Assembly (NCBI GenBank): GCA_964647665.1
Contig: CAZYIX010000001.1
Span: 11,080-75,079 of the forward strand
Source: an uncultured Candidatus Poseidoniales archaeon
GTDB taxonomy: Archaea; Thermoplasmatota; Poseidoniia; Poseidoniales; Thalassarchaeaceae
Length of the DNA: 64,000 nucleotides
Direction: 5' to 3'
Shown here: in pieces, positions 26,204 through 64,000 of the stretch
How the letters are laid out: each line of letters starts with the position of its first letter
Position numbering within the stretch: the first letter of the stretch is position 1
Program-made: the position numbers and the translations under genes
The notes under the pieces: model-generated
What the model was told of the DNA's origin: nothing
The model's database searches: none
The model's input: the letters and a program-made list of their open reading frames with translations, nothing else

Positions 26204-27580
26204 TCAGACATCTATGTTAGCCAACGCATTGTGAATACGTTCGAGTTCAATCTGTAAGCGAGCCATGTGGTCGTTCAATGCCATCCGTTCTCCCTCGGCC
26301 TGTCCGTAAGCCCTCCCTCCACCACTATTGGCAGCGTTGATTGCCGCCGCCACCTGATACACCTTGGTGGCGACCGCCTTGTCATTGAGCAGTGCAAGGG
26401 TTTGCGAAGCCAATCTATCTCCAAGAGGTAAGTTGTGACCACTATCATACAGACAAACTGCGGTTAGAAGTCGCAATGGTTCTAGGGTTCTAACCGGATG
26501 GATGAGGTATGGGGAATTGTGAGCACCATTCCCTGGCCTGATTAGCCATTGGACTCCACTGGTTCCCTTGACTAGAAGACCATGAGCACTCGCAGTAACT
26601 TCTTCATTTGAGGAAGCGATTCCACATAGCATCTGGAAGGACCTCTCATGCGGAGTGATAGTCGCAGCATTGGCACCTAATCCGATACGCAGCCCAGAAA
26701 CTAGGCAATAGGCTCGCAGTCGCATGGCTGCAGCACTACCATGTCTACCTCTCCAAGTGTTGGTGAATCGCTCAAGCACTCGCGGGTCCTGTGGCAGAGG
26801 TAGGACTCTGCGTTCACTATTCTTACCGACTATGCCGAGTAGATAGCCTTCGGAATTCCAATCGCACATCGGTGGTGCTTGACCTCCTCTGCTTCGATGG
26901 TCACTAACAGATAACATCGGAGCCTTTGCACTGCCTACCGGCATGAACATCATTCCACGCAAAGCCATCGCAATGCGTGATTGCGGCTCATTACTAGTAC
27001 CTCTATTTGCCCCGGTCAATGCTGAATGTATTGCCAAGAATCCGTTGACACCTTGCAAACTATCTGTCAACATTCGAAGTAGAAGTGAACCGGGGCCACC
27101 TTGAATCAGATGTTCACCAATACGTAGACCGTCTTCTTGCAATACCATCACATGTTGAGCAACTGCCATGCGTTCAAATTGGTGTTTTTCTCTTCCTCTT
27201 GAAGGGTGCAGCCGCTCATGTCCATCCATGAATAGGGGAGAACCTCGTTTTACCAGAGTATCTCTTGTTCTCTGTATCTGTTCCTCAATATTCTCATGGA
27301 TTTCTCGCTGTGGCGCAAGGTCACGTTCAGTTATTGCCATCAGCGCTATTCTCCAACTTTCATCGTTGTCAGGCATCGGAAGTCTGCCCATCTCCAGTTT
27401 CTCGCCAATTTCAACGAGGAACTCGGGCATATCCTCAATCAGATGTTGTTGCCATACTGGTTTCTGCCAAGATCTGATTACAGCCGCGTCATTCCAAGGC
27501 GCACAAACAGCACACAGGGGCTCAGGACTGCTTTCAAGCATTGGGCTACGACAGCATTCGCAGAGGATAGAATTGGACAT
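26204..27580 (-). CDS. Hypothetical protein, Cys4 finger + 'LPLGD' domain family, paralogue 1
   Basis: N-terminal CxxC...CxxC; C-terminal KGTSG...GAH...VCL...LPLGD shared with 51604 and 53196. Confidence 0.8.
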   Translation of the reverse strand: MSNSILCECCRSPMLESSPEPLCAVCAPWNDAAVIRSWQKPVWQQHLIEDMPEFLVEIGEKLEMGRLPMPDNDESWRIALMAITERDLAPQREIHENIEEQIQRTRDTLVKRGSPLFMDGHERLHPSRGREKHQFERMAVAQHVMVLQEDGLRIGEHLIQGGPGSLLLRMLTDSLQGVNGFLAIHSALTGANRGTSNEPQSRIAMALRGMMFMPVGSAKAPMLSVSDHRSRGGQAPPMCDWNSEGYLLGIVGKNSERRVLPLPQDPRVLERFTNTWRGRHGSAAAMRLRAYCLVSGLRIGLGANAATITPHERSFQMLCGIASSNEEVTASAHGLLVKGTSGVQWLIRPGNGAHNSPYLIHPVRTLEPLRLLTAVCLYDSGHNLPLGDRLASQTLALLNDKAVATKVYQVAAAINAANSGGGRAYGQAEGERMALNDHMARLQIELERIHNALANIDV

Positions 27581-28751: not shown

Positions 28752-28868
28752 CGAATGCGGCGAGTCGCAGCCCCTCTTTCATGCTGCCGTCGACTTTTGC
28801 ACCGGTTTTCCATCCACGTGCTACGCACGAAAAGGTGTCAATCGTTATACCAAAGCGATTATCATGCG

Positions 28869-31685
<2,817 letters not shown>

Positions 31686-48070: not shown

Positions 48071-48778
48071 TCATAACGAAAAGTTGCTGAACTCATCCTT
48101 TGGCTGTTGATGTTCAGCCTGTTGTAGTGTCAGAGCCATCTTTTCCTCAGGGCTCTTCATAGTCAATCCAAGTATCAATCCAATCATTGCAAACAATCCG
48201 CCGCATCCACAGCACATGCTGCCTCCAACAGTTCCACCCATCATGGCGCCGAGTCCGCCAACTAAAGCGCCTAATAATTCGTCATCATTAGTGACCCAAA
48301 CAGTAGTGTTCGACTCGAATTCCACCGTTCCCTCGTAGCAAGCAAGACAAGCCCTACCCACTTTGATTAGGCCTTCCCCCACCCTGTCAAAATTCTTGTT
48401 TTCGTCATCTGCCTCGCACCCATCATACCAATCATTGACCTCGTAGTAGAATGAGCCATTTAGTTCTCGAGATTCCCCCCCCCAATCACTGATTTCAGGG
48501 TGTGATAGTATGGTGATGTTGGTCGCTTCGCAGTGGTCCCATCTCCCATTGTCATCTTCATCCAGATATTCGCCCTTTACCCAGAAAGTGACTCCTAGAT
48601 CTCCGTTCCCATCATCATCTGCAATCTGTATGGTTCCTGATGTTTCGTTCTCAACAGCAAAATTCCCGAGTTCACCAAAATCATCTACACCTTTTGTAAC
48701 GCCGCCAAACATCATTGCAGCACCAAGTATCATCATGATGATTCCCGCGGGGAGTAGAATTTTGCCACTGATGTGCAT
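48071..48778 (-). CDS. Hypothetical membrane protein (2 TM flanking an acidic Cys-containing loop)
   Basis: Hydrophobic ends; CCGCGG in the C-terminal TM. Confidence 0.65.
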   Translation of the reverse strand: MHISGKILLPAGIIMMILGAAMMFGGVTKGVDDFGELGNFAVENETSGTIQIADDDGNGDLGVTFWVKGEYLDEDDNGRWDHCEATNITILSHPEISDWGGESRELNGSFYYEVNDWYDGCEADDENKNFDRVGEGLIKVGRACLACYEGTVEFESNTTVWVTNDDELLGALVGGLGAMMGGTVGGSMCCGCGGLFAMIGLILGLTMKSPEEKMALTLQQAEHQQPKDEFSNFSL

Positions 48779-48859
48779 GACTATTCGAGACAATCTTTGG
48801 CAATAAGGATTCACCAAGGTCAACCTTGTCCTTGGGTCGAATGAGCATCAATACACTGC

Positions 48860-51559: not shown

Positions 51560-51603
51560 GATTTTGCGTGTATTCAAATAGGGCCAATAGTGATGAGGAC
51601 GCC

Positions 51604-53190
51604 ATGTCTGCATCCTGTGTCGCTTGTAATGACCAATCTAAGCCGTTGAGCAGTGGTTGGTGCTCCCTCTGCACCCTGCTTCGTCGACCTCTTCTCGGTA
51701 TCTCAGCGGATACCGAACCGTCGTTGGCAGACCGTGTTGAAGCCAAGGCACTACTCGCTGAATCAGAAGGTATGCACGATGATATTCGCTGGCAAATGCT
51801 AGCCGAGCAAATTGTTGACCGTGTACCAGCTATCACTGCTCTTTTTGAGCGTAGATTGGCAGTAAATTGGGGTGTATCCAACCGTGACGAGTGGCGTCAG
51901 TTTGTCGAAGATTGGCAACCGCGTGCTCAGGGCAAGCGTGCCAACGCGCTCCCATGTGTACCAAACATCAGTGTCAACTTTCCATCCAATGGTACGTTGA
52001 GTCGTCGCGACAAGGACCTGTTCATTCAGGATGTTCGTCTACTCGGTCCGTTACCTATTGCCGACGTTGCCGATTGGCTCAGTAATGGCGCCGAGGCGCG
52101 TCCGCGTGCATACGAGGATTGGAACGAGGCGTTGGGTATGATGTCGGCTTGCACATGGCCTGTGAACGGCATCATCGACAGTGAATGGTTGGTAGAGAAC
52201 ACACTGCCTGGAATTCCGTTCCCGGGGGGCCTTAACCCTGCAGCAATCGAACAATTCGATGTTGAGACCTTCGCTATGTCCACAATGGACCAGCCACAGC
52301 ATCCGTTTTGGAATTGGGTATGTACTCAAATTTCATCCAAAGCCGACCTCTCAACCGCTTTACTGGTTGGTAATATTGGTGAGGAACTATGGGTCGAAAT
52401 TGCTCGTCGTGGTGGTGAACTCACCGATTTGTGGCGAGCGGCCCTCAAGGATTGGAAGGGCACTCACAACGCACCGATTCAGCCAGCACTTGTGGTTAAG
52501 GATGACCGCTTGTACCTGCTTACGGTGAAGGATGGTAGCTTCCAACCAACACCAATTCCACCCCTACCACGTGTCTGGAATATGCTCATCGCCTGTTCTA
52601 TGTCACCCCCTGGCAGCGAGCCAGCACGTCTGCTCGCTGCGTTGCGTTGGTGCTGGAATGATGATGATACCAGTTTGGTTCCAGACGAACGACAGATGCG
52701 TGGTCTCTCCATGCTACGACAGGTCTGTAGCAGCCACGCAGAGCGTGTATCAACCCTCGATGATGGTGAAGGCATCCTCATTCAGGGTGATAGTGGCATG
52801 TGCTACAAGGTGTACACTCGTGAGTCGTTGATGGGTCGCCGAGCCTTGAAAGTCATCGCTTTTCGCCACCGAGCTGCCTACGATAAGGGCGAGAACGGTA
52901 TGCCGGTTTGCATCGAGGCCAACGACCTCTCCGCTTCTGCTCTTCCGCTTGGGGACTACGCTGCTTCCTTCGTGCTCGGTTTGCTCAGCGATGTAATCAT
53001 GGCGCAGAAGGTAGCGACCCTACGTCTGCTCCACGCTGAGTGGAATCGTGCCCCACGTCACGACTCCCGAAGATGGCGTGAACTGATTGACAAGTACCCA
53101 ATGGGTATTGCCCTTGAGCAAGAGGATGAGGAAGAATACGATGACGAGTATTGGGATGACGAGGATTACGATGAATCTTGGGATGAGTGA
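51604..53190 (+). CDS. Hypothetical protein, Cys4 finger + 'LPLGD' domain family, paralogue 2 (acidic tail)
   Basis: CVAC...GWCSLC; ALRW, QGDSG, VCI, LPLGD. Confidence 0.8.
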   Translation: MSASCVACNDQSKPLSSGWCSLCTLLRRPLLGISADTEPSLADRVEAKALLAESEGMHDDIRWQMLAEQIVDRVPAITALFERRLAVNWGVSNRDEWRQFVEDWQPRAQGKRANALPCVPNISVNFPSNGTLSRRDKDLFIQDVRLLGPLPIADVADWLSNGAEARPRAYEDWNEALGMMSACTWPVNGIIDSEWLVENTLPGIPFPGGLNPAAIEQFDVETFAMSTMDQPQHPFWNWVCTQISSKADLSTALLVGNIGEELWVEIARRGGELTDLWRAALKDWKGTHNAPIQPALVVKDDRLYLLTVKDGSFQPTPIPPLPRVWNMLIACSMSPPGSEPARLLAALRWCWNDDDTSLVPDERQMRGLSMLRQVCSSHAERVSTLDDGEGILIQGDSGMCYKVYTRESLMGRRALKVIAFRHRAAYDKGENGMPVCIEANDLSASALPLGDYAASFVLGLLSDVIMAQKVATLRLLHAEWNRAPRHDSRRWRELIDKYPMGIALEQEDEEEYDDEYWDDEDYDESWDE

Positions 53191-53195
53191 TTCCC

Positions 53196-55193
53196 ATGCG
53201 CTGCGAAATATGTGAAGGCGAAGTTGAGCAGGTCGATGATGGCTGGTGCAATGTCTGCGCGATGTTTCGTCCCTCGTTATTCGGCTCCGCTGGCGGGAAT
53301 CCACCATCCCCTGAGGTGAGAGCAAACTTCGAAGGGAAGTACGGCGACAGCAGGAGCCGGGGTAATCGTACACGATGGCGTCATCTAATGACACAGAATC
53401 GCCTTACTGAGGATGCGGCATGGCTTCGTGTTCGTGTTGAGCAGGTTCCCGACGCACCCCTCGGCCCGCTACATCGTGAAATTGACGAAGTTGAGATGCT
53501 TGCACATTGGCGCTGGCTGAAGAATAGACTACAACAGGTTGGTTGGGATAGTCAGGAATCGAAGCAACTTCTTCAGCGCGGATTTCCACTGCCCGATGGC
53601 TCTTGGCTGTCATGTTCTGGTGAAGCGTGGTCAATTGACGGCCACCTGTTGATTGATGTGCCATATCGCTCGTTGCTGATGGCGTTCACAGATTCTATCG
53701 CTCATTTCGATGAGTTGGTCCAATTTGATTGGCATACTCTCCTTGAGTTGATGACAGTCACCCAGGTCGATGCGCAGGCCATTCATCGCCACGACCTTGT
53801 ACAGGAGCACGCCCGCAGATATCGCCATCTGCAACGGGGGCGCCACCGCGGCCGTCGTCGCGGCGATCCACTCGGCGCTGCTGGCCGGTTCGGTGGATGG
53901 GCGAGAGGGATTTGCAGCCGATTGGGCCATTCAACTCCGAACTACTACTATTCCCAAGATATGCATGAACAGCACGTCATCAATTCCAATTTTCTGAATC
54001 ATCAACTGGGCAATCTAGCCGGCCTGCACCATCCATGGATTAACCGGTGGTTGAACGCATCACAGGGTGGGCGAATATGGACAAGTCATGCAGCGCTCAA
54101 GTCGACACGTTCGCTTCGTGTACACCGAGGGCGACTACAGATTCGGTTGCTGCGTGAGGACCGCTGGGTTTGGTTGGTCGTGCCACCATGGCCAGAGTTG
54201 TGGGCTGTACTGTTGTCATGGGACATCTCTCCTCCAGCGCACTCAAGTTATCAGGAATTGATGGCACTCCGGTGGTTGTGGCATTCACCCGAGGGTGGAC
54301 TAAGGCCTAGTGAGGCCCAGACGCGCGCACTTTCGATGCTCGTCGGAGTTGCTCGAAGCAATGAGCGCGTCCACATTTGCCCCGAGGGGAAACCGGTGAT
54401 TGCGATTGAGGGCACGTCGGGTCTGTGGTACGGATTGACTATGCGCGTTGGCGCTCACTCCTCCAATTTTCTGATTCGAGGCTGCTTATCTCGTCGTGAA
54501 GCCGCTGACGATGAGTTGGGCGAACCGCTTTGCCTGCACCCCAACAGGTCAGGTCGTCGCTTGCCGTTGGGTGACCAGGTTGTCAGTGCGGTGTTATCGC
54601 TATCCGATGATCTTGCTACACGTCATAATCTCGCGCCGCTGAGCAGTTTCATTTCCCGTTGTCGCAGCAAGATACCACGAGGCGAAGATGAACCGGCCGC
54701 TAGAGGTGTTAATGCCCAGCAACAAGTGATGCAACGACTACGCGCAGCTGCCAATGGCAATCATGGCGGTGGGCGCTGGGTCTTCCTATTCCCGCGCTTG
54801 TATGAGATGCTGATTCGTATTCCAGAACGTGGCGTGATGATTATGCCGAGGGTCGGGGGAATCCTCTTTTTCGGCGCTGAGAATTTTACCATGACCATCC
54901 GCTCACATGAGGAGCGTGAGTTGGCCGTATCGCTAGCCCGTGCGACTGGATGGGCGCTGGATGAGGAGGAAGAAGACGGCGATGATGAACGCTGGGTACG
55001 GCATGCCGTTCCAGAGAACAATCTCGTGCGCGCATGGATTTACGAGGTCATCGGCCCCTATCAGCGACGGCATGGGACGAGGGGTGATGCACCGTGGTGG
55101 ACCCACTATCGAATTCCCAATGTGAATCCGGGTGGAGTGATACCTCGGGCAGTCAATCGGCGTTGGGACGACGGCGCTTTTGATGCGGCTTGA
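53196..55193 (+). CDS. Hypothetical protein, Cys4 finger + 'LPLGD' domain family, paralogue 3 (extra C-terminal domain)
   Basis: CEIC...GWCNVC; ALRW, EGTSG, GAH, LCL, LPLGD; abuts paralogue 2. Confidence 0.8.
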   Translation: MRCEICEGEVEQVDDGWCNVCAMFRPSLFGSAGGNPPSPEVRANFEGKYGDSRSRGNRTRWRHLMTQNRLTEDAAWLRVRVEQVPDAPLGPLHREIDEVEMLAHWRWLKNRLQQVGWDSQESKQLLQRGFPLPDGSWLSCSGEAWSIDGHLLIDVPYRSLLMAFTDSIAHFDELVQFDWHTLLELMTVTQVDAQAIHRHDLVQEHARRYRHLQRGRHRGRRRGDPLGAAGRFGGWARGICSRLGHSTPNYYYSQDMHEQHVINSNFLNHQLGNLAGLHHPWINRWLNASQGGRIWTSHAALKSTRSLRVHRGRLQIRLLREDRWVWLVVPPWPELWAVLLSWDISPPAHSSYQELMALRWLWHSPEGGLRPSEAQTRALSMLVGVARSNERVHICPEGKPVIAIEGTSGLWYGLTMRVGAHSSNFLIRGCLSRREAADDELGEPLCLHPNRSGRRLPLGDQVVSAVLSLSDDLATRHNLAPLSSFISRCRSKIPRGEDEPAARGVNAQQQVMQRLRAAANGNHGGGRWVFLFPRLYEMLIRIPERGVMIMPRVGGILFFGAENFTMTIRSHEERELAVSLARATGWALDEEEEDGDDERWVRHAVPENNLVRAWIYEVIGPYQRRHGTRGDAPWWTHYRIPNVNPGGVIPRAVNRRWDDGAFDAA

Positions 55194-55247: not shown

Positions 55248-56255
55248 ATGAGAGCGACGCGTTACGCCCTGCTATTGGCCGCATTGATGCTAACGGCCAT
55301 ACTTGCCACGGGTATGCCGGTGCAGGCGGCATCTACCGTTGACATATCAGAAAAACAAGGCCTTGTAGGTGGCCTCAGTCTTAGCCTCACAGCAGATTCC
55401 CAAAATACGACTATATCGGCAACGCTTGAGGAAATGCCCAGAATCGTTGAAGTTTACACTGCAACTTGGTGTGAAAACTGCGTTGGCGCAGAACACGCGC
55501 TTGACGATGCAGTAGAAGGTAAAGACGTGACCATGTTGGTCCATCACCGATACATTGGAGAGACTGAGGACCCATTTGGCTCTCAGGAAGGCGATGACCG
55601 TTGGATAGCGCGGTATGGCCCAGCATCGAAAGAATCGGTTGGGGTTGAGCGCGCTCCACCAACAATGGTTTTCGATGGATGCCGAGTCAAAGCAGGCAAT
55701 GTAGCGAGCGGCGATTCACTGCAGGCAGATTATCAGGAACTTCTTGTCCAACCCCTCTATTCAGCCGGTGCAGTATCCTCGGAGTTGGCTTGGGATGGCG
55801 ACAATAGTAGTGGCACAGTATCGTGGCATTTTTCTACTGAGAATCGTGACGCGGTTTGGACTCATCGTTTGATGGTTGTTGAGGAAACTGCGTACTTCCC
55901 TGAAGGTGGTAATGGACTGGATAATTACACCCATATTGTTCGGCAAGTTATCACTCTTGACGCGCTGAATTACCTTCCAAACGAGAGTGAGGGCGAGGTA
56001 ACACTCGACTTACTGGAAGCATGGGATGGCGATGACCTCTCATTGGTATTGGTTCATGAGTGGGAGTACGAAGATCAACCCCTTGGAGAGGATAATGGTG
56101 GTGTATTTGCAGTAATGGCAGGTGCGATGACCGGACTAGTCGTAGCCGCTTGTGTTGTTCTTGCCATCACCGTGGCTGTCATTGTGACCGTGGTAGTCCG
56201 CGCCTCGAAGTCGCAGCAACCGCCATCAGAGCCAGATTCAGGCCGCCACACCTAA
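55248..56255 (+). CDS. Membrane-anchored thioredoxin-like protein (Omp28-like architecture)
   Basis: Signal peptide, EVYTATWCENC, PT.VFDG cis-Pro loop, C-terminal TM. Confidence 0.78.
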   Translation: MRATRYALLLAALMLTAILATGMPVQAASTVDISEKQGLVGGLSLSLTADSQNTTISATLEEMPRIVEVYTATWCENCVGAEHALDDAVEGKDVTMLVHHRYIGETEDPFGSQEGDDRWIARYGPASKESVGVERAPPTMVFDGCRVKAGNVASGDSLQADYQELLVQPLYSAGAVSSELAWDGDNSSGTVSWHFSTENRDAVWTHRLMVVEETAYFPEGGNGLDNYTHIVRQVITLDALNYLPNESEGEVTLDLLEAWDGDDLSLVLVHEWEYEDQPLGEDNGGVFAVMAGAMTGLVVAACVVLAITVAVIVTVVVRASKSQQPPSEPDSGRHT

Positions 56256-57251
56256 CTTCTGTAGTAGGCTTAGATTCGTCTCTACACGCTGCTTGATACT
56301 AGCCGGACAACGACCGAGGGCGTCAGCGACAGCACCATGCCTTCGACTCACTTTTTGGTCGATGAAGACCAAACGGAACATCATGCCAATCAACATGTCA
56401 GGCATTGCGTTAGGAATTGCCCCGTCAAGAGTTGGCTCACCGATCTTCTTCAGGCGGTCATATACGTCGTTGATGATGTCATTGGCACGGTGGCGGAGAT
56501 TGTCTCGGGTCCACTGTGTCATGTGGTTGAGGACACTGGCGAACTGCATTGAACGAACCACCTCTGGATCACGCTGAACCCTTACTCTTAGCATGCCTTC
56601 AAGGCTTAGTCGGTCAATACGAGCTAGAATTGAGTTTTGTGCTCGCAGCACCTCGTTTTCGTCGAGTTCATGTTCCTGTATCCACTGGCGCCACAGGAAG
56701 GGTTCCATCAAGCCAAGTTTGCTGATAGCCATCACCACAGCGACTGCACTAACCTCGATAGCGTAATTCGGACGCATTACTTTCTTCTTGCGGATGAAGC
56801 GGAGTTCGTTTCTTGGCAGTGGTGCCAGTTTTCCACGTAGTTCTTGGTCTTGATTTTCCTTCTCGCTGTGGGTGAAGCAACCCATCACTACCTCGTGCGC
56901 GACATTCCGTACCATTTTGCCCAGACCCATCGCCTTGATGGCCTTCTTGATGTCGTTTGCTCGGCGGTGACGGTATCGTCGTCGACGGTCTAGGATGAAG
57001 TGTCGCAGTCCGATGGTCTTACCACTACTCAGTCTAATGTCTAGCAGAGTCATTTCGCTGCCGAGGGCTGCGTTACGGTCTGCACCGCTTCGGTTGTCTT
57101 CAGTAGCCCATTGACCGCCTTCGGCAGTATAGGCAGGATGAGACTCATCGATCATGTTGTCTTCGGCTACTATACCGCAGCCCACGCAGACTATTTCTCC
57201 GCGTCTCTCGTCGCATTCAGTGGCTTCGCCACACGCTTTACATTTGTGCAT
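56238..57251 (-). CDS. Divergent transcription initiation factor IIB (TFB)-like protein
   Basis: CKACG...D..RGEIVCVGCG.V..D..ID Zn ribbon; two cyclin-like helical regions; C-terminal VA.ALG....I..R HTH; AGGAG SD. Confidence 0.78.
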   Translation of the reverse strand: MHKCKACGEATECDERRGEIVCVGCGIVAEDNMIDESHPAYTAEGGQWATEDNRSGADRNAALGSEMTLLDIRLSSGKTIGLRHFILDRRRRYRHRRANDIKKAIKAMGLGKMVRNVAHEVVMGCFTHSEKENQDQELRGKLAPLPRNELRFIRKKKVMRPNYAIEVSAVAVVMAISKLGLMEPFLWRQWIQEHELDENEVLRAQNSILARIDRLSLEGMLRVRVQRDPEVVRSMQFASVLNHMTQWTRDNLRHRANDIINDVYDRLKKIGEPTLDGAIPNAMPDMLIGMMFRLVFIDQKVSRRHGAVADALGRCPASIKQRVETNLSLLQKLGVAA

Positions 57252-57678: not shown

Positions 57679-57802
57679 TTGGCGACGAAAAAAGCGGAAA
57701 AAAAACCAATGAGAGTCAACGTAGGAACCCACTCGGCGCAGCACAAACATCCAACCCCTTATACACCGTCGCAAATGCATAAGGGTGCTCGTAGGTGAGG
57801 AA

Positions 57803-60800
57803 ATGACAGATTCGAACATGCACACTGGACCTGCGCAACCGCTCACCATTGAGCACGTGCACAGCGGATATCCACCAGCATGGCTCATCGAGCACTTCCA
57901 AAATCAGGCATTGGATCCTAGTGTCGGACTTACCTCAGAAGGTAGCGGACGCTTGTTGTGCATCCATAGCAGCGACGCATCGCGTCAGCAGATGCTGTCA
58001 CTTCTTGACGATGGCAGTGTATCATCCCCCGTTGATAGAACGCATCATCACAGCCTATCTTCACTCAGCAAGAGCCTTGCGGCGGACTGCAGACTTGCGC
58101 GGGTTTTACCCGCCGGAGGAGCCACAGCGGTTTTGGTTCACGGAGCCTGCGTAGATGCGGCGAGCAAGTTGGCCTTCCCTATACTGCATCCAATTCCTGA
58201 CAACCGATGGAGTCGGACCAAGACCGATTCTTTGGCCAAACTGAACCGTGCACTGGTCAAGGAAGATGTCCGCCGTTGGGATGGCCCTGGCTGGCTTGGT
58301 TACCGCAGCGCAGTAGGTTCGGTGGAGTCGGGACTTTCCGGAGTGCATGAGGACAATCTCGTCGTTGCAGTATGTGAAGCGGTAGAGCGACGAGAGGATA
58401 TTCCATTCACTCTTGCAGGGTTTGACGGTATTCTGCTGATGGACCAGCCTCCTACTCTTTCTCGCTCGGAAGTTCGCCTATTGCAATCGCTGCGCCGTTA
58501 CCTGCCCGTGCATCAGTTGTGCCAGCACGGAGGACTGCCGATTGGCAATCATCGGCTTGGTTTACACGGGCTGATTCTAGAGGACGTGCCAGCAGTGCGT
58601 AATTCGGAGGCATTGCCGGAATGGATTCCTCAGCATGAGGTGTGGGATGCGATTGGGGGAAGCGCACCAGAGAGTCAGATTGACCGATTACTGATTAGTC
58701 GTGCTTCGGTAGGGGTGAAATCCGCTACCGAAGCCATTGCTTCTTGGCTTTCAGATTCCTCAAACGCTAACGCGCAAGTGCTCATCATCGACCCGAAGGC
58801 AGAAGCACGCAGCGATGATTGGAATCGCTCTTTGGGTCGACTCGGTCTTGCTCTCAGTTCACGGTCCGAGCCGTTGCTTACCAGTCCGTCCGTGCATTGG
58901 ATGCTGAACATGGCGTCTCTTGGTAATGGCCCGGCGGCATGGTCACTGGATTCATTGAGAGGAGTGGCAGGCCAGCGTTGCCTACCATTGACCGACCGTT
59001 GGTTGTTCGATGAAGCACATCCCAGTGAGCCGAGCTGGACTCCACGGCCCAATATTTCACATTTAGAGAACCTCGCCCGCTCTTGGCATATTGTCGGCGG
59101 CCTCGGCTCGCTAGAGAAGTGGTTGGCAGCGGTAAGAGCGCCCCCTCGCCCAAGCCCATATCAGAGCGAGGCACAAGCTGCTGAGATGGCTGAGCGCTGC
59201 CAATGGTGGTTGCTTTCCCTTGCGAATCGGTTGCGACCGCTACTGAGTCGAGCCGATGCCGCCTTGCTTGATGAGTCTGACTTGCGACTCGGTTGTTCTA
59301 GCGGCGTGGAGTTGCCACTTCCTCCATCGCCTACTGTAGGTGATGATTGGCTTGCCGCCCTGATGCGTTCAGTGGATTGGGCGGCACTTGCTGACAGAAT
59401 GGATGGCTCAACCGATAGTGTGACCACTGGACTTTCGCAATTATTGGAGTCACACCACAGCATGCGTGCAGGTCAGCGAACACTTGGGCAGGTCGCACCA
59501 CGATTTGGATTGGATTGGATTGAGGAAATGCGTCAGATGATATCCGGCCTTACCGTACCTACTCCAGATGAGGCATTGGGTTCCGTCCGGGTGTTGACGC
59601 CTACCGAAGCGCTGGGATGTACCGCTGACCTAGTGGTTCTTACCCACCTAACATTGACCGACTGGCCGTTGAAGTCAGAATCACTTCCCTTCGTTGATGA
59701 GGCTGAACGTTGCCGATTGAACATTGCTCGACTCGATGCACCGTTACGTGAAGCCCGTCACTGCTTCGAGCATTTGCTTCACAGCGGTTGTTGCATCCTA
59801 CTCATCGATGCCAGTGGCTTGGATGAGGACACCCAACCTGCTGCACCGCTTGCTGAGTGGCTTTCTGGCCATCAGGGGGCGGATTCTGCCGACTCTGTGC
59901 AGACCCCCTCCTTCTTGCCATTGGGTGAGGATGGATGGTTAACCGCAAGTGGCTCTCGCACCAAGGGCCACCACCTCGCTTACATTCCTGAGCGAATTGC
60001 TACGATTGAGGTTGAAGGAGAGCGTCAGATACAGGTCACTGTTGCTGGGTCCTCTGCGAGAGACCGCAGGCAGCGAACAGGCCTTGCATTGCATGAATCC
60101 AGAGCAGGCGACCCCCCATTGAATCCGTCAGCGATTACTCTCAGCCTTGAGGAAGAATTGTTCCGCGACCGCATTGCACGGATGCCTAATCAGGTCGCAT
60201 CGGACGAGGAATATCTTGACCCAGCATTCCGTCCTCGCATGGTCAGCGTTGAGGGACTCACCATTGTCCCTGGTAAATCAGGTCCAGCAGGTAAGCCGAA
60301 GCCGCGCAAGGCGCAGAATTGGCCCACACTTGGCGGCAAGAAAGGCAACTCAAACCTGATGGCCATTGACCCAAGGCCCCTCGCTCCAAATCCGACAGGC
60401 CTGTCCGTTCACGACTCGCGTACAGGCCATTCCGACCGCCCCTCTCAACAATCGATTGTTTGGTCACCCAGTCGCCTTCTAGATTGGCTGAATTGTCCAC
60501 GCAAGGGTTGGCTGACACGCGCCCTGCGAGCCGACGCAGAGGAGAAGCAGAAAGAGGATCTCAATGCGATGGAGCGTGGCAATCTGATCCACAATGGTCT
60601 AGGATTCTTGTTTGAGACTGCACTGGGAATGACCGAAGGCGTCGAGCGTTCCGAGCAGGGTGCAACTTCACTGGCAGGATGTGGACAAAGTGCGGAAGAC
60701 CTGATGATTCATCTGTTGGAATTCGCGGCGGACAACGCCCCTTGGATGGAGCGCAGTGATGCGATGGCAAGCCAGCGACGCTTCGACATGATAGCAATGC

Positions 60801-61681
60801 CTCGCGATAGATGGCTAGACTGGCTGGCTTCACCGGGCCCTTCGCCACCTTCTGGGCGTCTGGGCGCGATGCTCAATGCTGAACTCGCCATTGGCGACGC
60901 CGTCCCGTTAGTGTTGGAGTGGGCGCTGGATAACGATTCACGTGACGGTTACGTCGAATTGCATCTACCCGAATCACCTGATAACAGTCTGCAACTACGA
61001 GGGTTCATTGATAGGGTCGACTTTGTCGATTTGACGGGAATTGATGATGTCCCAGACCGCTTTATTCTGAATACGGATACTGAGGCTTCAGTCGCTCCGC
61101 TTGATTTCAATGCTGAATCGGACTGGAGACCCCACCGTCTTGTCATCATCAGGGACATGAAAGGCGTTGATGGACCCGGTGGCAATCAGAAAGGAATGCG
61201 GCACCGCAATGCACTGTTCAAAGACCTGCAATTAGGTCTGTATGCAAGAGCGTGGGAGATTACACATCCGGGGGATTTGGTCATCGCAGTAGGCATCTCT
61301 GAGGTCGGGCATTCAACCATCCATTCTCTCGAGACAACCCCTGAGCTGATTCCATTAATGAGCCAGATTCAACTTTCGATTGGAGATACCGTCCGCTCTT
61401 ACACCGGTGACACCCATCGACTGCCGGGCGAGGAGCGTACTACTGAGGTTAGCCTCGACAAAGATGGCGAGGAACAAATCGAGGTTAATGAGCCAGATTC
61501 TGACCCATTCAGAGCGTGGATGCGAGAGCGACTTACCACCGCAATTGCCGTAGCACGTAACGCCGAGGATGGCCGAGTTCATCCGACTCCGGTCAAGGAT
61601 GTAGCAGTCTGCTCCTACTGCAGTGTGCAGGCAGTATGTGGGCTAGCGCCTACCGTTGGAGGTGACAAGAAATGGAGTTGA
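57803..61681 (+). CDS. AddB/RexB-like protein: degenerate helicase scaffold plus C-terminal PD-(D/E)XK nuclease with Fe-S cysteines
   Basis: WSPSRL...CPRK, RG.LIH, LRGFIDRVD, RDMK, QLGLY, CSYCSVQAVC; no Walker A seen; AGGTGAGG SD. Confidence 0.85.
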   Translation: MTDSNMHTGPAQPLTIEHVHSGYPPAWLIEHFQNQALDPSVGLTSEGSGRLLCIHSSDASRQQMLSLLDDGSVSSPVDRTHHHSLSSLSKSLAADCRLARVLPAGGATAVLVHGACVDAASKLAFPILHPIPDNRWSRTKTDSLAKLNRALVKEDVRRWDGPGWLGYRSAVGSVESGLSGVHEDNLVVAVCEAVERREDIPFTLAGFDGILLMDQPPTLSRSEVRLLQSLRRYLPVHQLCQHGGLPIGNHRLGLHGLILEDVPAVRNSEALPEWIPQHEVWDAIGGSAPESQIDRLLISRASVGVKSATEAIASWLSDSSNANAQVLIIDPKAEARSDDWNRSLGRLGLALSSRSEPLLTSPSVHWMLNMASLGNGPAAWSLDSLRGVAGQRCLPLTDRWLFDEAHPSEPSWTPRPNISHLENLARSWHIVGGLGSLEKWLAAVRAPPRPSPYQSEAQAAEMAERCQWWLLSLANRLRPLLSRADAALLDESDLRLGCSSGVELPLPPSPTVGDDWLAALMRSVDWAALADRMDGSTDSVTTGLSQLLESHHSMRAGQRTLGQVAPRFGLDWIEEMRQMISGLTVPTPDEALGSVRVLTPTEALGCTADLVVLTHLTLTDWPLKSESLPFVDEAERCRLNIARLDAPLREARHCFEHLLHSGCCILLIDASGLDEDTQPAAPLAEWLSGHQGADSADSVQTPSFLPLGEDGWLTASGSRTKGHHLAYIPERIATIEVEGERQIQVTVAGSSARDRRQRTGLALHESRAGDPPLNPSAITLSLEEELFRDRIARMPNQVASDEEYLDPAFRPRMVSVEGLTIVPGKSGPAGKPKPRKAQNWPTLGGKKGNSNLMAIDPRPLAPNPTGLSVHDSRTGHSDRPSQQSIVWSPSRLLDWLNCPRKGWLTRALRADAEEKQKEDLNAMERGNLIHNGLGFLFETALGMTEGVERSEQGATSLAGCGQSAEDLMIHLLEFAADNAPWMERSDAMASQRRFDMIAMPRDRWLDWLASPGPSPPSGRLGAMLNAELAIGDAVPLVLEWALDNDSRDGYVELHLPESPDNSLQLRGFIDRVDFVDLTGIDDVPDRFILNTDTEASVAPLDFNAESDWRPHRLVIIRDMKGVDGPGGNQKGMRHRNALFKDLQLGLYARAWEITHPGDLVIAVGISEVGHSTIHSLETTPELIPLMSQIQLSIGDTVRSYTGDTHRLPGEERTTEVSLDKDGEEQIEVNEPDSDPFRAWMRERLTTAIAVARNAEDGRVHPTPVKDVAVCSYCSVQAVCGLAPTVGGDKKWS

Positions 61682-64000
61682 ATGTTGGACAGCGGCTTGC
61701 GCTGAATATTGACATGCACATCATTCTCGATGCTGGAGCGGGTACTGGCAAGACTCAGAGCACGGTGAATCGTATCATCGAGCACTATCTTGCCATCGAC
61801 CAGCGTGCAACCCGCATCCTTCCACCTGGGCCAAGGCCACAAGCGCTACCTTCTGGAGCGTTGATGGTTGGATTGGCTGAGCGGGAGGACTTGAGCAATT
61901 GGAATGGATTGCTGCCCAGTGAAGTGGTCGTGCTCACATTCACCAATCGTGCTGCGGAGGAGATGAGGCACCGGCTCTGGCTTGAGTTGGACCGTTTGCA
62001 AACTGGTCCGACTTCTGATGATGGCGGAGCAGTACGCAGTGATGCGAGAGTGACAGCCCCCGGTTTGCCCGAGCAGTTGAAGGCGATGCTGGAGGATGCG
62101 CCGATTGGCACAATTGATTCATTCCTTACTCGGCTGGTTTCCCCTTGGAAAGTAACCTTGATGGATAGGCCGACCGATGAGGTTGTCTCAGAATCCCGTC
62201 GTTTGGTTCTCATCAGCGAATCTCTTGACGTAATCTGGCGCCTCCGTTCTGCTGGCGATGCCATCGATGCAGGAATACCGGGAGAGATGGCAGAAGCCTT
62301 CCTTGCTTCTCGTGAGCGACTAATCCAGCGATTTGCTGACCGTCGCACAGTTCACACGGTTCTGGGTTCCCTACTAAACCACCAAATCTTCGTCGACGAG
62401 GTTGCTCGTAGGATGGACGCTGAGGGTGGTGTAAGCGCTGAGACTATCCGAGCGCTGATTCTCAATATCATCGAGGAACTTGCTGATGAAGTCGCAGACC
62501 TATGTACCACACTTCGAGACGAACATCTGGAATGGCGTGATGCTGTACTCGATGCTTCAGGTGACCTTGAGGTTGCCACCGCTCTGAGAGAAGGGATGAA
62601 TCGTTATGCTGCGCTCGATTCACTGCTGGAGATGCCACTGCCCGATACCATTTGGGAACAATTGCTGTGGATTCGCGCTTTGGCGGTTACCACACTGTCA
62701 AAATCAGTGCTCGACAAACCATCTCCAAACGTATTTGGTAATGGAAATCTCACCGGTAGTGCTGATTGGCCACGCGGCATCACTACTCTTGGCAAAATCA
62801 AGGATGCAGCGCTGAAGGCGACGGTCACAGGAACCTGCCGCACAGCCGCTGGCCGCATCAAACAGTTGTGGGGTTCCGCCAGCGGACGTCGGGCACGAAA
62901 GTTGGCTACGATGGTCAGTCTGCTCGACGACTCATCCCTGCCAGTGCCCTGCCGCCCGGCGAATCACCCGTCAGCATGGCAACCGGTCACTCTCCCAGCC
63001 CCACATCACCCACCGGCTGGTACCCTCTCTCTCGACATTGACGGGGAGGCACAAGCGATGAGTGACCTCATCTGTGTGCACCGGGGGTTGGTTGAGGTAT
63101 TCCGGGAGTTGAAAATCAACGAAGGTGTGCATGAGTTCGGTGACATTGCTGACCTTGCTGAAGACCTGCTGCTGACCCGCTGTCCGCGAATAATGCGCCC
63201 TCGCTATCCCGTTAGTGTAGTCGCAGCATTGGATGGCATTTCCCAAAGAAACCCTTGGCGCGACGACCATATTGAAAATGCAATGGCAATTCTTGACGCA
63301 TTGCTTGCTGCTGGTGAGCCTGCACAAGGCTTGAGTGTTGAGGAAATTACAGCCTTGCATCAGGACCTTGTCGAGCGCTGGGCTCGTTTGAAACAGATTC
63401 GCGCTCGTTATCGTGCCTTCATCATCGATGAGGCGCAAGACAACTCCTCGCAACAGTGGCGCTTGCTTTACCGGCTATGGGGTGAGCGAGAATTGTCTGA
63501 TAGCCGTCCCCGCCCTGACACCTCTTGGGAACCGACAGTTTGCTGTGTTGGAGACAGAAAACAGAGTATCTACGCCTTCCGGCAGGCCCGAGTGTCTGGA
63601 TTCATCGAGTTTGGCCACAATCTGCGTTCAATCAATCAGCATGAGTTTGCCTGCGTCCCTGAACTCACTCGTTTGCCTGAGTTGCGTCGAGCAGAGGAGG
63701 CTCGTGACCCCAGATATGCGGATGACGGCTCGTTTGTCACCGCCGCTGAGATGACCGCGTCACGAGGGATTGCTGAGGATGCTTGGGTTCGATACGATGT
63801 GGCGGAAGATGATAGCACACTGCCTGCTGTAGAATCACGAGCACGTTCCGAGGGCCATGTGGAATTGGTGGTGAACTACCGTTCTGCGGGTGATTTGCTT
63901 GAGTCAATGAACGATTGGTGGGATGGGCTATTCGACGAGAGTCATGACGGCCTTCCCGGTGATTGGTACGCGAGGTCCCAATCCCTAGTGCCATTCCGCA
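61672..64000 (+). CDS. AddA/UvrD-like SF1 helicase, 3'-truncated by the window edge (absent from ORF track)
   Basis: GGAGGTGA SD, then MELNVGQRLAL...DAGAGTGKT, LTFTNRAA, IGTIDSF, IIDEAQD, VGDRKQSIYAFRQA, NYRS read from the DNA. Confidence 0.92.
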   Translation, partial: MELNVGQRLALNIDMHIILDAGAGTGKTQSTVNRIIEHYLAIDQRATRILPPGPRPQALPSGALMVGLAEREDLSNWNGLLPSEVVVLTFTNRAAEEMRHRLWLELDRLQTGPTSDDGGAVRSDARVTAPGLPEQLKAMLEDAPIGTIDSFLTRLVSPWKVTLMDRPTDEVVSESRRLVLISESLDVIWRLRSAGDAIDAGIPGEMAEAFLASRERLIQRFADRRTVHTVLGSLLNHQIFVDEVARRMDAEGGVSAETIRALILNIIEELADEVADLCTTLRDEHLEWRDAVLDASGDLEVATALREGMNRYAALDSLLEMPLPDTIWEQLLWIRALAVTTLSKSVLDKPSPNVFGNGNLTGSADWPRGITTLGKIKDAALKATVTGTCRTAAGRIKQLWGSASGRRARKLATMVSLLDDSSLPVPCRPANHPSAWQPVTLPAPHHPPAGTLSLDIDGEAQAMSDLICVHRGLVEVFRELKINEGVHEFGDIADLAEDLLLTRCPRIMRPRYPVSVVAALDGISQRNPWRDDHIENAMAILDALLAAGEPAQGLSVEEITALHQDLVERWARLKQIRARYRAFIIDEAQDNSSQQWRLLYRLWGERELSDSRPRPDTSWEPTVCCVGDRKQSIYAFRQARVSGFIEFGHNLRSINQHEFACVPELTRLPELRRAEEARDPRYADDGSFVTAAEMTASRGIAEDAWVRYDVAEDDSTLPAVESRARSEGHVELVVNYRSAGDLLESMNDWWDGLFDESHDGLPGDWYARSQSLVPFR

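Follow-up and report, generated by a model that had tools for sequence, protein, structure and literature searches.

Three paralogous genes in a stretch of 64,000 nucleotides from an uncultured Candidatus Poseidoniales archaeon of the Thalassarchaeaceae (NCBI GenBank assembly GCA_964647665.1, contig CAZYIX010000001.1, positions 11,080 to 75,079; hereafter the window) encode proteins that we take, with moderate confidence, to be divergent E2-like (carrier) enzymes of a ubiquitin-like protein (Ubl) tagging system specific to the Poseidoniales. We refer to these genes and their products as A, B and C. This interpretation is favored because the conserved core of the proteins has a predicted UBC-like fold with an invariant cysteine in what would be the position of the E2 catalytic residue, because family members adjoin and co-occur with genes for a Ubl, an E1 enzyme and a JAB peptidase, and because there is no other E2 candidate. 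An earlier sequence-only reading of the window had singled the genes out as its best candidate for an undescribed system. The family is indeed absent from the family libraries searched, but the genes appear to form a strongly diverged part of a known type of system, not of one that is entirely new, given the predicted UBC-like core and the ties to the Ubl/E1/JAB operon.

Genes A and B lie in tandem on the plus strand, and the open reading frames (ORFs) of all three genes were confirmed at the positions previously assigned to them. Gene A (51604..53190, +) encodes a protein of 528 amino acids (aa) with a zinc ribbon, a helical middle part, the conserved core and an acidic, Trp-rich tail. The ATG at position 51604 is backed as the start codon by a 92%-identical homolog, which is likewise 528 aa long; the alternative start is a GTG at position 51568. 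Gene B (53187..55193, +) encodes 668 aa if translated from the GTG at position 53187, which overlaps by 4 nucleotides with the TGA of gene A, or 665 aa if translated from the ATG at position 53196, located 5 nucleotides past the stop of gene A, the latter length matching that of an 88%-identical homolog. The A-B pair is translationally coupled. Gene C (26204..27580) is located on the minus strand and encodes 458 aa.

All three proteins have an N-terminal Cys4 zinc ribbon, a middle part that is helical and rich in beta-strands, and a core of about 190 aa, the second half of which is predicted to be UBC-like. In A, the zinc ribbon is encoded at 51616..51672 (residues 5-23) and the core at 52486..53043 (residues 295-480), with the UBC-like part starting at about residue 358 and the key residues being Cys436 (52909-52911), Asp451 (52954-52956) and Asp463 (52990-52992). 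In B, the zinc ribbon (53202..53258, residues 6-24) is followed by the first half of the core (54111..54299, residues 309-371), modeled as a three-stranded meander plus two helices, and by the modeled UBC-like domain (54300..54683, residues 372-499) with Cys449 (54531-54533), Asp463 (54573-54575) and Asp475 (54609-54611). The corresponding features of C, all on the minus strand, are a zinc ribbon at 27503-27562, a core at about 26351-26863, and the residues Cys376 (26453-26455), Asp388 (26417-26419) and Asp400 (26381-26383). In addition, A has an acidic, Trp/Tyr-containing C-terminal tail (53098..53187, residues 499-528), which was seen in further A-type proteins too, and B has an Arg/His-rich variable insert (53769..53873, residues 195-229) that is predicted to be disordered, with a predicted local distance difference test (pLDDT) score below 50. 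B also contains an extra C-terminal domain (54759..55106, residues ~525-640), which is restricted to B-type proteins and gave weak, mixed structural matches (Z at most 4.0). C-type members have neither the acidic tail nor the basic insert.

The three proteins are unmistakably related. A and B share 34% identity across 180 aa (BLASTP, E 7e-22), to which the N-terminal Cys4 segment adds a match of E 2e-7, and both are similar to C (E 4e-8 for A, E 1e-10 for B). An unfiltered (--max) search of all six-frame ORFs of the source genome (1.91 Mb, 54 contigs, 98.9% complete) with a hidden Markov model (HMM) of the domain recovered exactly three copies, with E values of 2e-57, 3e-54 and 5e-51, and no fourth copy, the best remaining match having an E value of 0.53. 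These results confirm the paralogous family, consisting of a tandem pair and a third copy, that the sequence-only reading had described. Its motifs (CxxC-x8-11-CxxC, G[TD]SG, Cys and LPLGD) are present, as are the acidic tail of A and the Arg/His-rich insert and extra domain of B. It had also suggested that an invariant Cys and Asp mark a functional site, and this suggestion gained weight from the conservation pattern. In the 132 representatives of the family whose sequence extends over the region (residues numbered as in B), Cys449, Asp463 and Asp475 are kept in 132/132, in sequences that are otherwise only about 20% identical. Gly409 is kept in 130/132 representatives and Gly412 and Gly462 in 121/132 each, the two glycines of the GxSG motif thus being kept in 130/132 and 121/132. 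The single invariant Cys has hydrophobic flanks. No His or Asn is conserved family-wide in the same 132 representatives.

No known family accounts for these proteins. Searches of Pfam (E up to 1) and NCBIfam with A, B and C gave no match, and PADLOC and PHROGs gave only matches at the level of chance, the best being Avs1a in PADLOC (E 0.064) and a PHROGs match of E 0.09; no nucleic-acid-binding or nuclease family was matched in these four libraries. Among 77 diverse members there was no recurrent Pfam family even at E up to 10, and the resemblance to DUF4132-associated proteins that had been suggested for the domain was not borne out, with no such Pfam match at E up to 10. The description of the family as unrecognized thus stands. 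The family profile produced four chance matches to PDB sequences, none of them to an E2. Nothing usable was obtained for B from the ESM Atlas, where residues 368-500 led to one unnamed cluster at 0.84, and viral contigs searched with C gave no match. A word-indexed protein search returned close relatives only, 1 for A and 12 for B. No description of the family was found in the literature on Poseidoniales/Marine Group II ubiquitin-like proteins or on archaeal and prokaryotic E2-like proteins, a survey that had supplementary family lists outside its scope. The closest literature is a passage in which a UCH peptidase and RING E3s are noted for a single-cell genome of Marine Group II (PMC4327156).

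A profile built from 17 sequences and run against 1.84 billion cluster representatives identified 281 proteins with a cut-off of E 1e-3; 159 of them also passed a cut-off of 1e-10, and 80 one of 1e-30. In a scan of 201 genomes of the class, the family was matched in 99, including 25 of 65 genomes in family f1, 72 of 90 in f3, 1 of 43 in f4 and 0 of 2 in f5, where the f4 match comes from one genome, a 73%-complete bin. Likewise, the matches in a scan of 301 genomes of the phylum were confined to f1 (8/21) and f3 (37/42), and no member was found in the other families sampled. The closest relative (88% identical) is from a metagenome-assembled genome of a Candidatus Thalassarchaeaceae archaeon, order Poseidoniales, and in the genome scans the family is confined to this one order. 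A lone strong B-type match (G083:C196:69-1781, E 8e-108) was found on a short contig of a 73%-complete genome from another family of the class; this contig may be mis-binned, since no E1-JAB genes were found in G083. A tree of the 132 representatives resolves three clades: A-type proteins of 520-600 aa, B-type proteins, which are 620-850 aa long and carry the additional domain at the C-terminus, and C-type proteins of approximately 240-450 aa; A and B fall into the clades named after them. The family annotates two to four formerly "hypothetical" genes in most Poseidoniales genomes.

The structural models point to the UBC superfold. The AlphaFold model of full-length B had a pLDDT of 73.7, with values of 81-93 in the core, and the core folded alone with a 77-sequence alignment reached 88.6. 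In the model, the second half of the core runs through a helix, four antiparallel strands, a short helix, the loop that bears the Cys and three helices, and an extra unit of three strands and two helices precedes this UBC-like part. We compared the model to 48,161 PDB chains with a structural aligner that is independent of Foldseek and classed the best 50 rows by title. At least 42 of these 50 are E2, UEV, RWD, UFC1 or FANCL structures, 6 are ambiguous and 2 are unrelated, with Z scores of 3.5-5.4, and the aligned span matches model residues 75-205 to nearly entire E2 chains. The best 50 include FANCL (Z 5.4, root-mean-square deviation (rmsd) 3.5, 84 aligned), UBE2S (1zdn; Z 5.2, rmsd 4.3, 107 aligned), VPS37A (Z 4.7), the Tsg101 UEV domain (Z 4.7) and RWD domains (Z ~4.3). 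In Foldseek itself, nearly every top row was an E2 enzyme (E 0.2-0.85, probability no higher than 0.44), and re-scoring of its candidates gave the UBC superfold throughout, with UBE2S (5bnb_C) as the best match (Z 5.4, rmsd 4.2, 102 aligned). The full-length model of B gave the same E2-type picture as the core alone, and the parts of B beyond the core yielded weak, mixed matches. We argue for a predicted UBC (E2/UEV/RWD)-like fold of the second half of the core because the best matches are uniform, despite the low scores.

The catalytic Cys of E2 enzymes is found in the loop that connects strand 4 to helix 2. The invariant Cys of the family is placed by the model approximately 16 residues after strand 4 and 12 residues before helix 2, and according to the aligned ranges it is presumably close to Cys87 of Ubc13 and Cys95 of UBE2S. 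No match to UQ_con (PF00179) was found in the source genome at E up to 1.

The family is tied to a Ubl-E1-JAB operon both by gene neighborhood and by phyletic pattern. In the genomes G011, G194 and G178, the gene order is a Ubl-like ORF, a gene for an E1::JAB fusion, a gene for a small protein, TFBL (a gene for a divergent TFB paralog, described below) and, convergently, B and A. The E1::JAB proteins in these genomes consist of 402-409 aa and contain a ThiF domain that scores above the cut-off (E 2e-8 to 6e-14), with the JAMM motif H-x-H-x7-8-S-x2-D in the C-terminal half, where it is present in 8/8 aligned homologs. The Ubl-like ORF in front encodes ~70-76 aa and ends with GGQ, GGN or AAG, and the small protein behind has 77-87 aa. 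Elsewhere, E1 (~220 aa) and JAB (~180-200 aa) are encoded by separate genes. In G026, the genes for E1, JAB and a family member of 369 aa follow each other on one strand, with no TFBL there. Overall, a family member was located at most ~1.7 kb from the E1 or JAB genes in 17 genomes of six genera, as read from the listed coordinates.

The source genome also contains the set, comprising a putative Ubl of ~73 aa that ends with GLVGG-SQ (C8:235-~453), a minimal E1 (C41:8222-8884; ThiF E 3e-10), a JAMM/JAB peptidase with the motif HTHP...S.TD (C41:7629-8222) and the small protein of 87 aa (C41:7384-7644), all on the minus strand. The start of contig C8 and the end of contig C41 probably abut, in which case the assembly gap splits the Ubl operon. 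The set is distinct from a MoeB/UbaA-like E1 (C16, E 3e-81), a ThiS/MoaD-type protein that ends with GG and a Prok-JAB match, all of which are present in the same genome. Among the 201 genomes of the class scan, 93 contain both the family and E1-JAB, 6 only the family, 4 only E1-JAB and 98 neither. In genera with a patchy distribution, the same genomes carry both (1/10 in g11, namely G011, and 1/6 in g4, namely G178), and genus g17 has 0/10 for both.

A second genomic link connects the family to the machinery for transcription initiation. TFBL (56238..57251, minus strand, 337 aa), which is convergent with B in the window, is a divergent third TFB paralog in a genome that also encodes two canonical TFBs. 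It aligned over its full length with a canonical TFB of the source genome (hhalign probability 98.7%, E 4e-16, 291 columns). The Zn_Ribbon_TF model gave 28.4 bits for TFBL, slightly below the cut-off of 29, and 40.1 and 33.8 bits for two orthologs; no match to PF00382 was obtained for TFBL. Judged from its sequence, TFBL is of the TFB/TFIIB type, with a zinc ribbon and two cyclin-like repeats. Alignments of B-type proteins with TFBL recovered a generic zinc ribbon only (hhalign probability 3.9%).

TFBL was present at 11/11 of the A/B or B loci that are not interrupted by a contig end. In the class scan, 78 full-length matches to TFBL were strong (E up to 1e-25), and 72 of these are located within ~2.2 kb of a B-type gene and convergent with it, as read from listed coordinates on the same contig. 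The other six comprise one match on a different contig, one for which the position of B is unlisted and four second or partial copies. The family was present in 74/74 genomes with a strong TFBL match. Three arrangements were observed: B, a membrane protein and a convergent TFBL in the window and in most genomes; TFBL directly against B and A in G011, G194, G178 and G202; and a TFBL-like gene upstream of B on the same strand in G075. The gene in G075, a genome on the Poseidoniaceae side, encodes a weakly TFBL-like zinc-ribbon protein of 446 aa (L046:2245-3582, +). Second TFBL-like copies were found away from B at G015:C33:476-1468, G107:C61:8842-9840 and G196:C233:6-923 (E 1e-38 to 2e-42).

Two further genes were observed beside A, B and TFBL. 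In the second arrangement, A is adjoined by a gene for a double zinc-ribbon protein of 154-165 aa (Zn_ribbon_TFIIB, E 4e-10), located at L022:7336-7830, L023:11642-12103 and L024:11415-11903, all on the plus strand; it has no homolog in the source genome at E up to 0.01. Between B and TFBL, the window contains a gene for a protein of 335 aa (55248-56255, +) with an N-terminal signal or anchor sequence, a thioredoxin-like WCxxC motif, a C-terminal membrane helix and no Pfam match. We considered this membrane protein as a part of the module and rejected it because the second arrangement lacks it; its association is probably no more than synteny.

If A, B and C are carriers, the system might operate as follows. 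The JAB peptidase would trim the residues after the GG of the Ubl, E1 would adenylate the Ubl, and the Ubl would then pass to the invariant Cys (Cys449 in B, Cys436 in A, Cys376 in C) in the loop that connects strand 4 to helix 2. Partners or targets would be selected by the zinc ribbon and the extensive non-catalytic parts, much as happens in E2/E3 hybrid enzymes, and A and B would form a coupled pair dedicated to TFBL or its contacts. We infer the thioester chemistry, this order of steps, the targets and the pairing of A with B. A and B would most likely act in transcription initiation, since the two genes are coupled and genomically tied to TFBL. We suggest more tentatively that the Poseidoniales possess a complete, self-contained Ubl cascade with divergent E2s of their own, in which A and B, as E2/E3 hybrids, might tag TFBL or use it to reach the RNA polymerase or promoters.

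If true, transcription initiation in an archaeal group that ranks among the most abundant of the surface ocean would be under the direct control of protein tagging, and E2-type carriers would have a wider range and a greater divergence than one would gather from profile searches. Recognizable archaeal E2s are reported mainly from Aigarchaeota and Asgard archaea, with eukaryote-like E2s known in the TACK and Asgard groups. The family would offer biochemists three to five proteins as a manageable set, and TFBL would make the link between tagging and transcription initiation directly testable in archaea.

Several observations weigh against the assignment of A, B and C as E2-like carriers. The structural scores are weak (Z at most 5.4), and a Z score under 8 can mean a common arrangement only; no Foldseek match was obtained at E up to 0.001 with the models of full-length B or the core. 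The proposed correspondence of the invariant Cys to the E2 catalytic Cys is judged from topology and aligned ranges. An HPN-like motif is absent, with no position from strand 4 to the Cys conserved at 75% or more in the 132 representatives, and searches of Pfam, NCBIfam, PADLOC and PDB sequences revealed no sequence or profile similarity to E2, UEV or RWD proteins. The genomic evidence has limits as well: A, B and C are not adjacent to the E1-JAB genes in the source genome; the putative Ubl, which has no Pfam match, was called from its size, position and GG tail; the co-occurrence of the family with E1-JAB is an association and not a statistical test, because the genomes are related and many are incomplete; and B occurs without an adjacent TFBL in genera g2 and g10 and in part of g19. 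Finally, an E2 is not a requirement of archaeal Ubl systems, since sampylation is not known to involve one. The HPN motif is missing from several non-canonical E2s too. The failed sequence-based tests and the absence of this motif from the family are the reasons why we do not file the family as a member of the UBC family.

The main rival explanation is that the family belongs to the same Ubl system in a role other than that of the carrier. It could be an adaptor of the non-catalytic UEV/RWD type, serve as a receptor for the Ubl, select substrates in the manner of an E3 or itself be the main target, with the Cys and Asp residues being structural or involved in binding. We regard this as less likely than the carrier reading. 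The pseudo-E2 domains of the UEV, RWD and FANCL types score equal to true E2s in the structural comparison, the lack of a conserved HPN-like motif and the precedent of sampylation-type systems that need no E2 are as expected for such proteins, and gene neighborhood and co-occurrence show a link rather than a chemistry. However, a Cys that is kept in 132/132 sequences of about 20% identity, and at the E2 active-site position, is unexpected for a scaffold, and UEV and RWD domains are not known to carry that Cys.

It is considerably less probable that the proteins contribute a different Cys/Asp enzyme to the system, such as a peptidase for deconjugation or a transferase that acts on the Ubl or its targets, and that their likeness to UBC proteins stems from the model or from convergence. 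The invariant triad of one Cys and two Asp residues, the weak Z scores and the missing sequence link to E2s would all fit such an enzyme, but no His is invariant, as a Cys-His-Asp triad would require, the system already contains a JAB peptidase, and at least 42 of the best 50 structural matches belong to one superfold. Least probable of all is that A and B act on nucleic acid as a heteromer, as the sequence-only reading had proposed, or are transcription-factor subunits that work with TFBL independently of Ubl chemistry: the coupling of the two genes, the acidic tail of A and basic insert of B, the tight linkage of B to TFBL and the weak winged-helix-like matches of the C-terminal domain of B (PhnF, Z 3.9; Cdt1 C-terminal domain, Z 4.0) are compatible with it, but the heteromer proposal gained no support, no nucleic-acid-binding or nuclease family was matched in the four libraries, C-type members have neither tail nor insert, and the near-perfect co-occurrence with E1-JAB and the members located right after E1 and JAB without TFBL (G026) would be left unexplained.

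The A/B locus is no island. Its neighbors are housekeeping genes, which encode a threonine aldolase-type lyase, an aminotransferase, Trm1, PurM and MoaA, and the base composition is even. Downstream of the module, the window contains a gene for a protein of 1298 aa with a PD-(D/E)XK nuclease domain (57785-61681, +), followed by a large ORF that runs off the end of the window (61672-63999, +). Both families keep this nuclease-domain pair, which may be AddAB-like, downstream of the module. We also observed an ORF of 250 aa with no Pfam match between the cysteine dioxygenase-like and aminotransferase genes (48071-48823, minus strand), and a gene for a secreted protein of 976 aa (28755-31685, +), in which Asp/Gly-rich repeats (DGGG, "C.NTPAGT") are followed by two apparently solute-binding-like halves.

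We compared the proposed E2-like carriers to known systems for protein tagging. They resemble canonical UBC E2s (UQ_con, PF00179; UBE2S, Ubc13, UbcH5) in the predicted topology of a helix, a four-stranded antiparallel sheet, a Cys loop, a crossover helix and C-terminal helices, in one invariant Cys that the model places in the loop from strand 4 to helix 2, and in the association with Ubl, E1 and JAB. They differ in that sequence or profile similarity is not detectable, the HPN motif is missing, the Z scores do not exceed 5.4, and the domain is embedded in larger proteins (460-850 aa) that also contain a zinc ribbon and extensive additional regions. With the pseudo-E2 domains of UEV, RWD and FANCL-ELF they share the superfold and equal structural scores. 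These domains are not known to carry an active-site Cys, whereas the Cys is invariant in the family (132/132).

The E2 of Caldiarchaeum subterraneum is a recognizable UBC protein. A eukaryote-like E1/E2/RING cascade is reported for this archaeon (PMC5654768), and the system proposed here would resemble it as an archaeal Ubl cascade with an E2 step. It differs in that UQ_con finds nothing in the source genome.

Prokaryotic operons of the Ubl-E1-JAB(-E2) type were described by Iyer, Burroughs and Aravind (2006; PMC1779556), and their studied descendants include Bil, CBASS Cap2 and Bub (PMC11601596). The Poseidoniales system has in common with these operons a small Ubl with a short tail after the GG, a ThiF-type E1 that is either fused to JAB or separate, and an E2-like partner nearby. 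However, its E2-like partner matches no Prok-E2 or defense-system models, and the system is chromosomal, syntenic and confined to one order, rather than a mobile defense island, and is linked to a TFB paralog.

Among archaeal Ubl systems, sampylation is the best studied, and no E2 is known in it. It differs from the Poseidoniales system in its E1, which in the latter is minimal (~220 aa) and distinct from the MoeB/UbaA-like E1 of the same genome. The two systems share the archaeal trio of Ubl, E1 and JAMM peptidase, and in Haloferax volcanii, where the components are SAMP1-3, UbaA and HvJAMM1, a published study reports Ubl-modified TBP2 (PMC4895103), which provides a precedent for the attachment of a Ubl to a basal transcription factor.

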